From an uncultured Gemmatimonadales bacterium (GTDB lineage Bacteria > Gemmatimonadota > Gemmatimonadetes > Longimicrobiales > RSA9), in NCBI GenBank assembly GCA_963798845.1, contig CAWCUS010000004.1, positions 64,001-128,000 of the forward strand: a stretch of DNA of 64,000 nt, written 5' to 3'. The notes below the pieces were generated by a model. That model had not been told where the DNA came from. It searched no databases and saw only the letters and a program-made list of their open reading frames with translations. The position numbers were made by a program, and so were the translations under genes. This document shows positions 29,756 to 49,135 of this stretch, piece by piece; within the stretch, counting starts at the first letter, position 1, and the number at the start of each line of letters is the position of its first letter.

Positions 29756-31054
29756 ATGGCAGAGAAGGTCGAAGTCCGGGATCTGGCGGGGCACGCGGGC
29801 GAGGCCGTGGAGGTGGCGGGGTGGGTGGAAACCACGCGCTCGCATGGCAAGATCGGGTTCGTCGTCATCCGGGATGGGACGGGCGTGCTCCAGTGCGTGA
29901 TCGCGAAGAAGGAAGTGGACGAGGCCATATGGGAGCGCTTCGGGGCGTTGACCCAGGAGAGCAGCGTCCGGATCACGGGGTCGGTGCGCGCGGACGATCG
30001 GGCGCCGGGCGGATTCGAGCTGACGGTGGCCGGCCTCGAGGTCGTCTGCGAGACCATCGGTGAGTACCCGATCCAGCCGAAGGAGCACGGCATCGAGTTC
30101 CTCCTCGACCACCGCCACCTCTGGCTGCGGTCGAGCCAGCAGCGCGCCGGGCTGCGCGTCCGCGACGAGGTGGAGAAGGGCATCCACGACTTCTTCTACG
30201 ATCGGGGCTTCGTCCGGATCGACACTCCGATCCTCTCCGGCGCCATCGGCGAGAGCGCAGGCACGCTCTTCGAGACCGACTATTTCGGCGAGAAAGCGTT
30301 CCTGGCTCAGACCGGCCAGCTCTACGCGGAGGCCGCGGCCGCGGCGTTCCGGAAGGTCTACTGCTTCGGACCGACGTTCCGGGCGGAGAAGTCCAAGACC
30401 CGGCGCCACCTGACCGAGTTCTGGATGTGCGAGCCGGAAGTGGCGTTCGCCGACTCCGACGACAACATGCGCCTCCAGGAGCAGTTCGTCTCCTACCTGG
30501 TGCAGCGGGCCGTGGAGAACTGCGCCGAAGAGCTCGCGACGCTCGAGCGCGACCAGGCGCTGCTCGAGAACGTGAAGCCGCCCTTCCCGCGGGTCAGCTA
30601 CTCCGACGCGGTGGAGTTCCTGAAGCGCGAGGGACACGAGATCGAGTGGGGCGACGACCTGGGCGCGCCGCAGGAGGCGGCCATCAGCGAGCAGCACGAC
30701 CGCCCCGTCTTCGTCTACAACTATCCGAAGCAGGCGAAGGCGTTCTACATGAAGGAGAACCCGGCCGACCCGCGCACCGTGCTGTGCGACGACCTCCTCG
30801 CCCCCGAGGGCTACGGCGAGATCATCGGCGGCAGCCAGCGCGAGGACGACTACGACAAGCTGCTGGGCCGCATCCGCGAGGAGAAGCTCCCGGAGGAGGC
30901 CTACGGCTGGTACCTGGACTTGCGGAAATACGGCGGCTTCCCCCATTCGGGCTTCGGCCTGGGGCTGGAGCGGACGGTGGCATACATCACGGGGCGCAAG
31001 CACATCCGGGAGCTGATCCCGTTCCCGCGGCTGATCAACCGGCTTTACCCGTAG
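29756..31054 (+). CDS. asnS: Asparagine--tRNA ligase
   Basis: OB-fold N-terminus, [37 protein letters not shown]. Confidence 0.96.
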
Positions 31055-31315
31055 GGGCTCGGCCGCTTCGCGGGCCTCGCAGAGGGGCTCGGCCGCTTTG
31101 CGGCCTCGCAGAGGGGCTCGGCCGCTTCGCGGCCTCGCAGAGGGGCTCGGCCGCTTTGCGGCCTCGCAGAGGGGCTCGGCCGCTTTGCGGGCCTCGCAGA
31201 GGGGCTCGGCCGCTTCGCGGCCTCGCAGAGGGGCTCGGCCGCTTCGCGGCCTCGCAGAGGGGCTCGGCCGCTTCGCGGCCTCGCAGAGGGGCCGGCCGCT
31301 TCGCGGCCTCGCAGA
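31054..31315 (+). repeat. Tandem hairpin array A: 9 units of 28-30 bp
   Basis: Unit GGGGCTC-GGCCGC-TT(C/T)-GCGGCC-TCGCAGA repeated 9 times, filling the gap between the asnS and mazG stop codons. Confidence 0.97.
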
Positions 31316-31322
31316 GGGGGGG

Positions 31323-32136
31323 CTACTCGGAGGCTTTGACTTCGTCCCAGAGGCGGTCCAGGGCCTCGAGACCGGCGTTGCCGAGCTCGACGCCGCGCTC
31401 GGAGGCCAGGCGCTCGAGGGCTTCGAAGCGGCGGGTGAACTTCGCGTTGGCGGAGTGCAGGGCCGTGAGAGCGTGGGCGCCGGCCAGGCGGGTGAGGTTG
31501 ACGACGGCGAACATCAGGTCGCCCAGCTCCTCCTCCAGCCCCGCCCTTGCTTGTCCCTCGTCTTCCGTCTGGGTCTCCCCGTGCCGGCTCGAATTCGACG
31601 CGGCGCGCAGCGCCGCCATCGCTTCCCTCACCTCCTCCATCTCCTCCGCGACCTTCTCGAAGGCGCCGCCGGCATCGGCCCAATCGAAGCCGACGGAAGC
31701 GACGCGGTCCTGGATCCGATGGGCCTTGCTCAGCGGGTCGAGTCCGCGCGCCACGCCGTGGAGGAGGCCGGTTTCGGCATCGCGCTCCCGCGCCTTGAGC
31801 GTCTCCCACTCCTCCTTCTCGCCGAGACCGAAGAGGTGAGGGTGGCGACGTCGCATTCTTGTCGATCACCGTGTCAGCCACGTCGTCGGCATCGAACGCG
31901 TCGCGCTCGCGCGCCAGGACGAGCTGGAAAGCCAGGTTGAGCAGGAGGTCCCCGAGCTCGGAGCGGAGGGCGTCGTCGTCCTCTTCGGCTATGGCATCGG
32001 CGGACTCGTGGGCCTCCTCCAGGAGGTACGGGATGAGTGAGCGGGGGGTCTGCGCGGCATCCCACGGGCAGTGGGCCCGGAGGAACCGGACCAGGTCCGT
32101 GACGCGTTCGAGCGCGTCCGATTGCTTGGGTTTCAC
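31323..32136 (-). pseudogene. mazG: Nucleoside triphosphate pyrophosphohydrolase MazG, split by a 1-nt frameshift (true lesion or assembly error)
   Basis: The N-terminal frame has CPWD..QT, EEAHE and ELGDLL. The C-terminal frame starts MRRRHPHLF and has GFDW, EELGDL and KFTRRF. The junction reads GAC AAG A ATG CGA, with an extra base at 31856-31857. Confidence 0.88.
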
Positions 32137-32168
32137 GGCGCGCCTATACTATTCGTTCTTTGCGTATT

Positions 32169-48494: not shown

Positions 48495-48593
48495 TTTCGA
48501 TTTCCGGATTCCGTGGAGCGCGGTACGCGCGAAATGGTCGAGCAATGTACGAGTGTACGTGGCGGCGACCGGTCCGAACAAGGCCGGGACGGC

Positions 48594-48746
48594 GGGCTCG
48601 GCCTTCCGGCCTCGCAGAGGGGCTCGGCCTGCGGCCTCGCAGAGGGGCTCGGCCATTCGGCCTCGCAGAGGGGCTCGGCCTGCGGCCTCGCAGAGGGGCT
48701 CGGCCTTGCGGCCTCGCAGAGGGGCTCGGCCCTTCGGGCCTCGCAG
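48594..48746 (+). repeat. Tandem hairpin array B: 6 units of 25-26 bp, same family as array A
   Basis: GGGGCTC-GGCC-[TTCC/TGC/ATTC/TGC/TTGC/CTTCG]-GGCC-TCGCAGA. Confidence 0.96.
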
Positions 48747-48871
48747 GCGGTGGGGTAAAGGCGGCCGCATCCCGTCGTGAGCTGGCTGCTTCCGGCCGTC
48801 GTGGCAAGGCAGGCCCATCGCGGGGAGCGCTGGGACGCGGATCGGCCGGGCGACGGAGCCGGACGGGGATC

Positions 48872-49135
48872 CTGCGAACGAAGTGAGCCCCTCTGCGAGG
48901 CCGCAACGCGGCCGAGCCCCTCTGCGAACGAAGTGAGCCCCTCTGCGAGGCCGCAACGCGGCCGAGCCCCTCTGCGAACGAAGTGAGCCCCTCTGCGAGG
49001 CCGCGACGCGGCCGAGCCCCTCTGCGAACGAAGTGAGCCCCTCTGCGAGGCCGCAAGCGGCCGAGCCCCTGCAACGAGTGAGCCCCTCTGCGAACGAAGT
49101 GAGCCCCTCTGCGAGGCCGCAACGCGGCCGAGCCC
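48872..49135 (-). repeat. Tandem hairpin array C: 50-bp higher-order unit, inverted relative to array B
   Basis: On the plus strand the core GAGCCCCTCTGCGA alternates with ACGAAGT and GGCCGC-AAC-GCGGCC; 11 modules, one degenerate near 49070. Confidence 0.96.

Follow-up and report, generated by a model that had tools for sequence, protein, structure and literature searches.

Repetitive extragenic palindromic (REP) sequences and bacterial interspersed mosaic elements (BIMEs) are short, G+C-rich, imperfect palindromes that occur in hundreds of copies outside genes, at gene 3′ ends and between convergent genes. Their sequences are species-specific and patchily distributed among close relatives, the copies are clustered with defined linkers, and imperfections in the palindromes set one strand apart. 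Debate continues over how REP-type repeats spread and over their status as parasites or tools. Here we describe hairpin arrays that resemble these elements in all of the properties listed, located in a 64,000-nucleotide stretch (the window) of the chromosome of an uncultured Gemmatimonadales bacterium (contig CAWCUS010000004.1, positions 64,001 to 128,000). The genome under study, G000, comprises 4.26 Mb in 6 contigs with a G+C content of 70–71%, and like REP-bearing genomes it contains HUH genes resembling REP-associated tyrosine transposases (RAYTs). The repeated unit is a short G+C-rich hairpin set in a 5′-GCGA...GAGC-3′ frame, with two G·A oppositions at the foot of the stem and a short pyrimidine linker. 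With a confidence slightly above even, the arrays are read here as a lineage-restricted, REP/BIME-like family of intergenic palindromes that spreads by copying from one gene-end spacer to another and grows by tandem expansion.

The arrays depart from REPs and BIMEs in several respects. The modules of G000 stand head-to-tail, up to 19 in a row, whereas BIMEs alternate in orientation and paired REPs (REP doublets forming hairpins, REPINs) are inverted; the stem is free in both sequence and length; and the arrays show a 5′-to-3′ polarity and form pairs that are always divergent. Two described REP superfamilies are defined by GTAG and CGTC tags (PMC3733652), and neither tag nor its complement was seen on either strand of the common modules and linker when these were read by eye. 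A conserved tag, inverted doublets of the REPIN type and a RAYT gene flanked by cognate REPs, which mark REP systems, were not found in G000; of the BIME hallmarks, defined linkers are present and alternating orientation is absent. Both strands of window positions 30000–50000 were compared with Rfam, giving no match at E values up to 1. An earlier annotation made from the letters of the window (the first-pass annotation) had suggested that the arrays might be an undescribed REP-like element, and with respect to Rfam and to those two superfamilies they are indeed REP-like yet outside the described classes. Full-text literature searches limited to literal terms returned no description of such arrays, in Gemmatimonadota or elsewhere; the features not found described are direct arrays of free-stem hairpins in a fixed G·A frame, genome-specific linkers, one-sided decay and obligatory divergent pairing.

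A second point of comparison is provided by DNA mini-hairpins. GCGNAGC and GCGNNAGC mini-hairpins are described as extraordinarily stable, far above their RNA versions, as resistant to nucleases, as poor binders of single-stranded DNA-binding protein and as being found at priming sites on phage single-stranded DNA (2026 review, PMC13037366). The C-GNA-G and C-GNNA-G tips of the modules, together with their CGAG/CGAG frame, are exactly these mini-hairpin and G·A motifs. Tandem G·A pairs are favoured in the context 5′-C-GA-G-3′. Known cases of the mini-hairpins are single sites (phage or plasmid origins, promoters) or synthetic oligonucleotides, whereas the present ones, known from sequence, form chromosomal arrays at 30 loci. 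The telomeres of Streptomyces linear replicons consist of close-packed G+C-rich palindromes with GCA-type loops closed by purine-purine pairs, which are believed to fold when single-stranded and to be recognised by proteins dedicated to them; they share both the packed G+C-rich palindromes and the loops of this type with the arrays and differ in forming one set at the chromosome ends, whereas the arrays are internal, dispersed and tandemly amplified. Bacterial minisatellites are likewise intergenic tandem arrays whose copy number is quick to change, although the mycobacterial interspersed repetitive units (MIRUs, of the variable-number tandem repeat type) are 40–100 bp long, are not hairpin modules and have no shared frame with free stems. 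A CRISPR array was rejected on anatomy: the constant part is a 6–7-nt linker plus a 4-nt frame on each side, and the variable part is a 5–17-nt palindrome that recurs in other arrays and genera, in place of the constant 24–48-nt repeats and unique spacers of similar length of a CRISPR array (cas genes were not searched for).

Hairpin arrays and module grammar

The first-pass annotation had reported three intergenic arrays in the window. All three are present where it placed them, and its counts of 9, 6 and 11 modules were borne out when the sequence was read by eye; an automatic linker parser returned 9, 5 and 7 modules. The arrays, with the repeats delimited by Tandem Repeats Finder (TRF), are as follows.

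31054..31319, minus strand: array 1, nine modules with stem GGCCGC and loops GAA or AAA (TRF 31053–31319, period 29, 9.2 copies, 96% matches)
48594..48746, minus strand: array 2, six modules with stems GGCC or GGCCC, left arm of a divergent pair (TRF 48594–48746, period 26, 5.9 copies, 92% matches)
48747..48871, no strand: unique spacer of about 125 nt between the divergent arrays 2 and 3, faced by the 5′ ends of both GA strands
48872..49135, plus strand: array 3, eleven modules, right arm of the divergent pair (TRF 48872–49093, period 50, which is a two-module unit, 4.5 copies, 96% matches)

The strand given for an array is the one that bears the GA dinucleotides of the frame (the GA strand), which is the minus strand in arrays 1 and 2 and the plus strand in array 3. 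Read on this purine strand, a module consists of CCCCTCT followed by GC-GA-[stem-loop]-GA-G, and the first C of the next linker closes the outer G-C pair. The grammar GC-GA-[stem-loop]-GA-GC with a CCCTCT linker, as first proposed, is valid for the window arrays, in which all of the reported stems (AC/GT, GGCC, GGCCC and GGCCGC) and loops (GAA, GCA, GGAA, GCAA, AAA, GAAT, AAC, GAC and AA) were found. In array 3 the stem AC/GT with loop GAA alternates with the stem GGCCGC with loops AAC, GAC or AA.

Genome-wide searches revealed a dispersed family, as had been supposed, with 30 arrays in G000 and further ones in related genera. The linker-spanning 14-mer GAGCCCCTCTGCGA occurs 182 times in G000 against once for its reversed control, an abundance far above chance. 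The linker word CCCCTCTGC gave 259 matches in 54 clusters, 30 of them being same-strand arrays of 3–19 modules, and within any array the modules are all head-to-tail. A parser that chains linkers recovered 261 modules with 69 distinct hairpin sequences, which is an undercount as modules at array edges are missed. The GCGA...GAGC frame is present in 219 of the 261 modules, and 202 of these 219 combine a perfectly paired inner stem with a loop no longer than 5 nt. Twelve stems occur in G000 (GGCC, GC, AC, GGGC, GGCCGC, GAC, GACC, GGC, GGCCC, GGCCCC, AGCCCC and AGCCCG) and 15 in the loci of relatives, so that the stems covary with full compensation, in agreement with the symmetrical changes noted in the window. 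The frame differs in the remaining 42 of 261 modules, which include the fully paired GCGCGCC-TCC-GGCGCGC and GCGCCGC-GAA-GCGGCGC. In the fully paired modules both G·A oppositions are replaced by G-C pairs through an A-to-C change on both sides, and these paired changes are the clearest sign that the G·A positions of the frame oppose each other in a helix. The further claim that the fold is under selection is not supported; compensation of this kind could stem from palindrome-correcting template switching.

Modules multiply head-to-tail by tandem duplication, often as super-units of two or three modules, the signs being identical adjacent modules, A-B-A-B orders and TRF periods of 50, 51, 88 and 117. 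One module, GCGAACGAAGTGAGC, is present in 24 copies in G000. Linker-to-linker spacing varies (21, 23, 25, 26 and 29 nt) and shows no helical phasing. This bears on the view that the arrays bind a protein, such as a nucleoid protein or gyrase, in double-stranded DNA, with ...GAGC-linker-GCGA... as the site and the palindromes as spacers. The BIMEs of E. coli at gene ends are reported to bind gyrase and IHF, and the linker-spanning 14-mer is the most conserved stretch within the genome, both of which would suit such a view; however, spacings of 21–29 nt without phasing do not, and the linkers differ between genomes while the supposed spacers are conserved across genera, the opposite of what is predicted. 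A protein-binding array is accordingly regarded as highly improbable.

A loose search of the whole genome for any GA-framed 2-bp hairpin gave 309 matches outside the arrays against 300 and 118 for two control frames; being swamped by chance, it served only to spot additional arrays. At C6:513962–514107 an array of the same GA-framed hairpins carries an 8-nt linker, GATCGAAA or GATCGACA, which shows that more than one linker family coexists in G000. Long C-runs are present on the GA strand in the flanks of many arrays. The genome as a whole is unusually rich in minisatellites, with 153 TRF arrays of period 12–70 and at least 3 copies in 4.26 Mb. Among the tandem repeats is a second family with units of 44–51 nt, mostly composed of two G+C-rich hairpins with linkers of the TCGAA, GTCGA or TTCGA type; the hairpin tips are C-GAA-G or C-GCA-G, again on one strand. 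Arrays of this second family are located as follows.

Contig C6: 1183393–1183565, 1184728–1184965, 1072607–1072813, 490702–490917 and 17346–17567
Contig C2: 220224–220452
Contig C1: 463667–463988 and 560351–560500

Linker differences and array turnover in related genomes

The CCCTCT linker had been taken as a constant of the family. It is fixed only within G000, and other pyrimidine linkers are found in related genera. The exact 14-mer occurs once in G001, a member of the same genus, and is absent from 39 other relatives; across 185,579 species genomes the matches listed (80 of at least 119 stretches) were all single and in unrelated taxa, as expected of chance. When the linker was omitted, a pattern for the GGCC module gave 115 matches in G000, 18 in G005 and at most 2 in each of the other 299 genomes of the phylum sample. 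The genome G005, from another genus of the same family, follows the same grammar with the linker CTGTT and has a different hairpin in nearly every module.

The frame alone was searched with the pattern TGCGA-N5-15-GAGCC-N3-6-TGCGA over 73 genomes of the bacterial family concerned (f1), with reversed controls giving 0–3 matches per strand. The highest counts were obtained for G000 (192), G354 (111), G369 (47), G355 (25), G356 (22), G348 (18), G347 (12), G005 (12) and G353 (5), while the sister genome G001 gave 2. The matches listed for G351 (3) and G352 (1), both of genus g5, are also GA-framed hairpins, and the remaining f1 genomes contain only chance-like, non-hairpin matches. Real arrays are limited to genera g1, g5, g21 and g157 among the 73 genomes searched, and 246 genomes of other families gave at most 5 matches each, near the reversed-pattern control. 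The arrays were thus found only in a subclade of one bacterial family. These tallies, together with the comparisons of RAYT-like genes and of asnS identity given below, include six genomes flagged as unpublished (G359, G020, G017, G016, G210 and G187), on which no array claim depends. Contigs begin or end inside arrays in G348 (C111, C179, C183) and G369 (C12, C32, C42, C112, C133, C137); as the contigs of fragmented assemblies begin or end within arrays, the counts there are underestimates, and the arrays evidently break short-read assemblies of related soil bacteria.

Linkers are characteristic of the genome, with CACCCT, CATACT and CACACT in G354, CCTCTT and variants in G355 and G348, and CTGTT and CGGTT in G005 and G356. 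Entire hairpins, among them GCGAACGAAGTGAGC, GCGAGCGCAGCGAGC and GCGAGGCCGTCAGGCCGAGC, are found in more than one genus. The spacer behind asnS, the aminoacyl-tRNA synthetase gene adjoining array 1, was examined in 12 genomes. An array lies directly after the asnS stop codon, always antisense to the gene, in 6 of the 12 (G000, G354, G355, G356, G353 and G352), each time with the linker of its own genome; a remnant or single hairpin occupies the site in G001, G369 and G005, and none is present in G021, G332 and G012. Linkers are homogenised within each genome, so that species differ in their linkers even downstream of one and the same gene. The asnS spacer holds either an old array whose linkers were replaced in step with the genome or the product of repeated recolonisation, and both readings require ongoing copying between loci.

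Empty or reduced sites were found in the sister genome, where all five of the G000 arrays compared are absent or vestigial (G001 belongs to the same genus, with genes 77–91% identical). The array 1 site is a 27-nt spacer with the remnant of one module, and arrays 2 and 3 are absent. At the site of C6:1016908 a single unrelated hairpin is followed by a G-run, and as four other genomes examined also lack this array it was gained in the G000 line. The site of C6:922046 contains one antisense module and part of a sense module, the array itself having the sense orientation in G000 and the antisense one in both G005 and G356, and at C1:719877 the conserved flanks enclose 72 nt of unrelated sequence. 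Units are copied to new gene-end spacers, and arrays arise, grow and decay quickly. Unrelated 7-nt microsatellites occupy spacers orthologous to G000 arrays in three relatives, of the GAGATCT type in G005 (L214, contig C12) and G356 (L215, contig C99) and of the GAGCTCC type in G369 (L220, contig C195).

Strand asymmetry, gene-end location and polarity

A single strand bears the G·A frame, the G..A ends of the loops and the pyrimidine linker. In G000, C-GNA-G or C-GNNA-G tips are present in 160 of 261 modules (20 of the 69 distinct sequences), compared with 13 of 261 for the complementary C-TNC-G or C-TNNC-G tips, and GA-framed hairpins have G..A loops in 22 of 51 cases against a single T..C loop. 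In the loci of relatives, 44 of 56 distinct TGCGA...GAGCC segments fold as hairpins, compared with 5% of shuffles; 32 of these 44 have 3–4-nt G..A loops (closing pair unscored) and none has a T..C loop. The middle base of the loop varies freely, and the G·A frame and G..A tips are retained in at least four genera, over more than 25 different stems.

Folding energies of the two strands were calculated for single modules (mean of 69) and for the whole of array 1, where z compares the sequence with its shuffles.

Single module, RNA: GA strand −9.18 kcal/mol; complement −7.95 kcal/mol
Single module, DNA: GA strand −4.81 kcal/mol; complement −4.62 kcal/mol
Array 1, DNA: GA strand −75.6 kcal/mol, z = 0.13; complement −90.6 kcal/mol, z = −1.25
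Array 1, RNA: GA strand −152.3 kcal/mol, z = −2.99; complement −181.3 kcal/mol, z = −3.29

As RNA the GA strand folds better in 52 of the 69 modules, equally in 9 and worse in 8. The 15-nt module GCGAACGAAGTGAGC gave approximately 0 kcal/mol on both strands with the DNA parameters of ViennaRNA, and standard nearest-neighbour parameters may not carry the reported special stability of sheared G·A pairs and GNA loops. The strand-specific fold put forward by the first-pass annotation therefore stands in part: the loop counts place a purine signature on one strand, whereas by standard energies the two strands are about equal. The identity of the motifs with DNA mini-hairpins suggests that the modules may fold as single-stranded DNA. 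If such folding takes place in the cell, the arrays would be among the largest natural collections of a mini-hairpin motif that has so far come mainly from phage origins and chemistry.

The position of the 30 arrays relative to genes was examined with our own codon-bias caller, for which stop codons are reliable and start codons rough.

Between co-directional genes, GA strand sense: 13 arrays
Between co-directional genes, GA strand antisense: 9 arrays
Between convergent genes: 6 arrays
Between divergent genes: 2 arrays

Arrays persist almost only at gene ends: 28 of the 30 touch a gene 3′ end, often 0–12 nt from the stop codon. This close placement raises the possibility of an RNA-level device, in which the arrays would form 3′ untranslated regions of transcripts and serve as multi-hairpin terminators or as barriers to exonucleases; in the sense orientation the C-rich single-stranded linkers could load Rho, and in the antisense orientation the G-rich linkers could be Shine-Dalgarno-like or form a G-quadruplex. 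Several observations are in line with such a device, namely the position next to stop codons, the RNA folds of both strands of array 1, which beat their shuffles, the orientation behind asnS, which is kept in six genomes, and one G005 array whose last linker runs into AAGGAGG and then ATG. The orientation of the arrays to transcription is nevertheless mixed, with 13 sense and 9 antisense and with the reversal between genomes at C6:922046, and for this reason the conserved strand asymmetry cannot be an RNA requirement. The modules are also not matched by an Rfam family, and direct reading of both strands found no T-run after them, on which ground intrinsic terminators were rejected. An RNA device as the explanation of the arrays is considered distinctly improbable, and RNA-level use of 3′-end hairpins is compatible both with the REP/BIME-like reading and with the minisatellite reading discussed below.

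The genes next to the window arrays, assigned with Pfam, are as follows.

29756..31054, plus strand: class II aminoacyl-tRNA synthetase of the D/K/N type, called asnS (tRNA-synt_2 and anticodon-binding OB fold)
31323..31856, minus strand: MazG-domain gene, convergent on array 1, whose sense strand is the GA strand
45825..48494, minus strand: pyruvate phosphate dikinase gene, downstream of arrays 3 and 2
49141..50523, minus strand: glutamine amidotransferase (purF-like) gene, whose stop codon adjoins array 3

Array 1 occupies the entire spacer between two convergent stop codons, with 2 nt to each stop; it adjoins the TAG stop codon of asnS, the mRNA of which would hold the complement of the GA strand. 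Array 2 lies approximately 100 nt upstream of the pyruvate phosphate dikinase start, and array 3 ends 6 nt from the stop codon of the amidotransferase gene on the opposite strand.

Replication-strand bias was tested by GC skew and rejected, as the GA strand is leading-strand sequence in 11 arrays and lagging in 19 (p = 0.20), which is not significant. A polarity of a different kind was observed within the arrays. Degenerate linkers are found at the 5′ end of the GA strand: among the 11 arrays with variant linkers (such as CCCCCCT and CCCTCCT), 10 have them in the 5′ half (p = 0.012), and 29 of the 33 variant linkers are located there. Adjacent arrays in G000 are arranged minus-then-plus in five of five pairs, with no plus-then-minus pair seen, so that both GA strands have their 5′ ends towards a unique centre of 69–451 nt, and the two arms carry different modules. 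Divergent pairs recur in relatives, with four in G354 and the same arrangement in G005. A four-helix-bundle gene (Pfam 23S_rRNA_IVP, 40–43 bits) is centred in a divergent array pair in both G000 and G354, at the positions given below. Three genes of this type are present in G000, and another of them (C6:1185657–1185971) lies approximately 700 nt from arrays with the TTCGA linker.

L227:263–673 (G000, contig C1), minus strand: 23S_rRNA_IVP gene between paired arrays
L223:271–861 (G354, contig C2), minus strand: 23S_rRNA_IVP gene between paired arrays

Copying between spacers and candidate enzymes

The purine asymmetry is kept across genera and stems and is indifferent to transcription and to GC skew, from which we infer that it reflects the copying of the element and not a function in host RNA. 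In the REP/BIME-like reading, the element would propagate by way of a folded intermediate of single-stranded DNA that a structure-specific enzyme recognises, for which an HUH/RAYT-like enzyme would be the obvious candidate, although no evidence ties one to the arrays. In RNA, hairpins from either strand would probably be tolerated, or be mildly useful as 3′-end barriers or terminators. A Pfam scan of the 46 genes called in the window (5 of 46 without a family match) revealed no transposase or HUH nuclease, so any serving factor must be encoded outside the window, as the first-pass annotation had supposed; its interpretation as a whole is partly supported.

RAYT-like genes were identified elsewhere in G000. 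Pfam Y1_Tnp detected three intact genes (C1:549.8 kb, C5:284.9 kb and C5:399.3 kb) at 19–29 bits (cut-off 23), and a protein search added one broken copy.

L140:856–1821 (C5:398621–399583): RAYT-like (HUH/Tyr) gene, copy A
L139:826–1953: RAYT-like gene
L138:1417–2421: RAYT-like gene
Contig C2, 166604–167534: broken RAYT-like copy

The intact products are 320–375 aa long and carry an extra C-terminal part, in which one copy has a weak helix-turn-helix match. Two of the genes are flanked by inverted repeats whose exact sequence is confined to these sites, and the two arms flanking the third are imperfect. A RAYT-like gene flanked by terminal inverted repeats is described as a TIRYT or TIRtron, and genes of this type are stated to show no obvious correlation with repeat families (Di Nocera et al. 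2013, PMC3733652). The G000 genes resemble TIRtrons in lying between pairs of inverted repeats of about 20 bp, and differ in that these repeats are unrelated to the hairpin modules. Orthologues of copy A with at least 46% identity occur only in genera g5, g157, g158 and g21, and G001 lacks copy A at the syntenic site. The idea that array copies would cluster around a RAYT or IS200-like gene failed, the genes being away from the arrays, and a link by physical proximity was rejected, with each gene having its own repeats and no module nearby; a link between RAYT-like genes and arrays is possible.

Several results weigh against the REP/BIME-like reading. The intact RAYT-like genes reach 50–73 bits on NCBIfam REP_Tyr_transpos (cut-off 80), each is bracketed by its own 20–21-bp inverted repeat, and the 700 nt on either side of these genes and of the broken copy contain no GA-framed hairpin module; contig C5, which is home to two of the genes, has no array. 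In G369, which has 47 pattern matches and is 98% complete, no RAYT-like gene was found by two different queries. The co-occurrence of copy A with arrays, which is real at the level of genera, is confounded by relatedness, as the genera concerned are also the nearest by asnS identity (78–83% versus 66–76%), and is contradicted by G369. The folding advantage of the GA strand per module is small, the complement of the whole of array 1 folds better than its GA strand, and as DNA neither strand does better than its shuffles. In two cases of gain the array has taken the place of 33–72 nt of resident sequence without visible target duplication, an outcome compatible with either gene conversion or transposition. 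Owing to the crude gene caller, start-codon distances are rough, and the sequencing runs listed include no RNA runs, the seven available being of DNA or unknown kind with word shares of 0.05–0.19.

Many of the same results are accommodated by a recombinational minisatellite model, which is a serious rival although we judge it unlikely. Here the arrays are ordinary hairpin minisatellites without a dedicated enzyme: replication slippage enlarges terminator hairpins at gene ends, modules and linkers are spread and made uniform by ectopic gene conversion between similar G+C-rich hairpins, palindrome-correcting template switching compensates the stems, and the purine asymmetry is inherited from one ancestral module. 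The abundance of minisatellites in G000, including other hairpin-array families with different linkers, fits this model, as do the gained arrays, which replace a resident hairpin with its G-run or unrelated spacer, the presence of arrays in G369 without a RAYT-like gene, and the nearly equal folding of the two strands in standard models. Slippage or unequal exchange should, however, leave variants at both ends of an array, and 10 of 11 arrays have them at one end only. The maintenance of the G·A frame and G..A tips over so many stems and genera, and the invariably divergent pairs of G000, G354 and G005, also speak against it.

A more specific form of single-stranded copying may be considered, and is thought quite unlikely. 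The mobile unit would be a single mini-hairpin with its linker, in the form of folded single-stranded DNA; a structure-specific enzyme would excise this unit and insert it into its target, the linker of a resident module. Self-targeted insertion of this kind, by an enzyme of the HUH type or another, would build direct arrays from one end, a polar accretion of palindromes similar to that of CRISPR. It would explain the mixture of hairpins in each array, the degenerate modules at the 5′ end, the always-divergent pairs and the indifference to the direction of transcription, and it would account for the genome-specific linkers, which would evolve together with the enzyme. Five dispersed sites also enclose the hairpin GCGAGCGCAGCGAGC or a close variant, on contig C2 of G000 (532528, 533597, 540733, 544489 and 546322), the immediate flanks of which are common to all, with three of the five nearly identical throughout. 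These five are probably attC-like cassette sites, and under the self-targeted insertion model the GA-framed hairpin would be a structural building block shared with apparent cassette sites of the single-stranded DNA type. The arrays themselves were rejected as attC sites on anatomy.

The family offers a conserved frame shared by several genera, a fast-evolving genome-specific linker and free stems that can be separated from one another, which is hard for the REPs of E. coli or Pseudomonas. Sister species with and without the burst are available (192 versus 2 pattern matches), and the polar build-up and invariable divergent pairing point to directional copying, which can be put to the test.

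The rest of the window is ordinary core chromosome, containing the division and cell wall (dcw) cluster, recG, asnS, alr, purine biosynthesis genes and pyruvate phosphate dikinase. On the plus strand at 39676–40050, directly after a ComEC-type competence gene and far from any contractile-injection gene cluster, a 124-aa product is encoded that has a weak match to the eCIS_core domain (29 bits).

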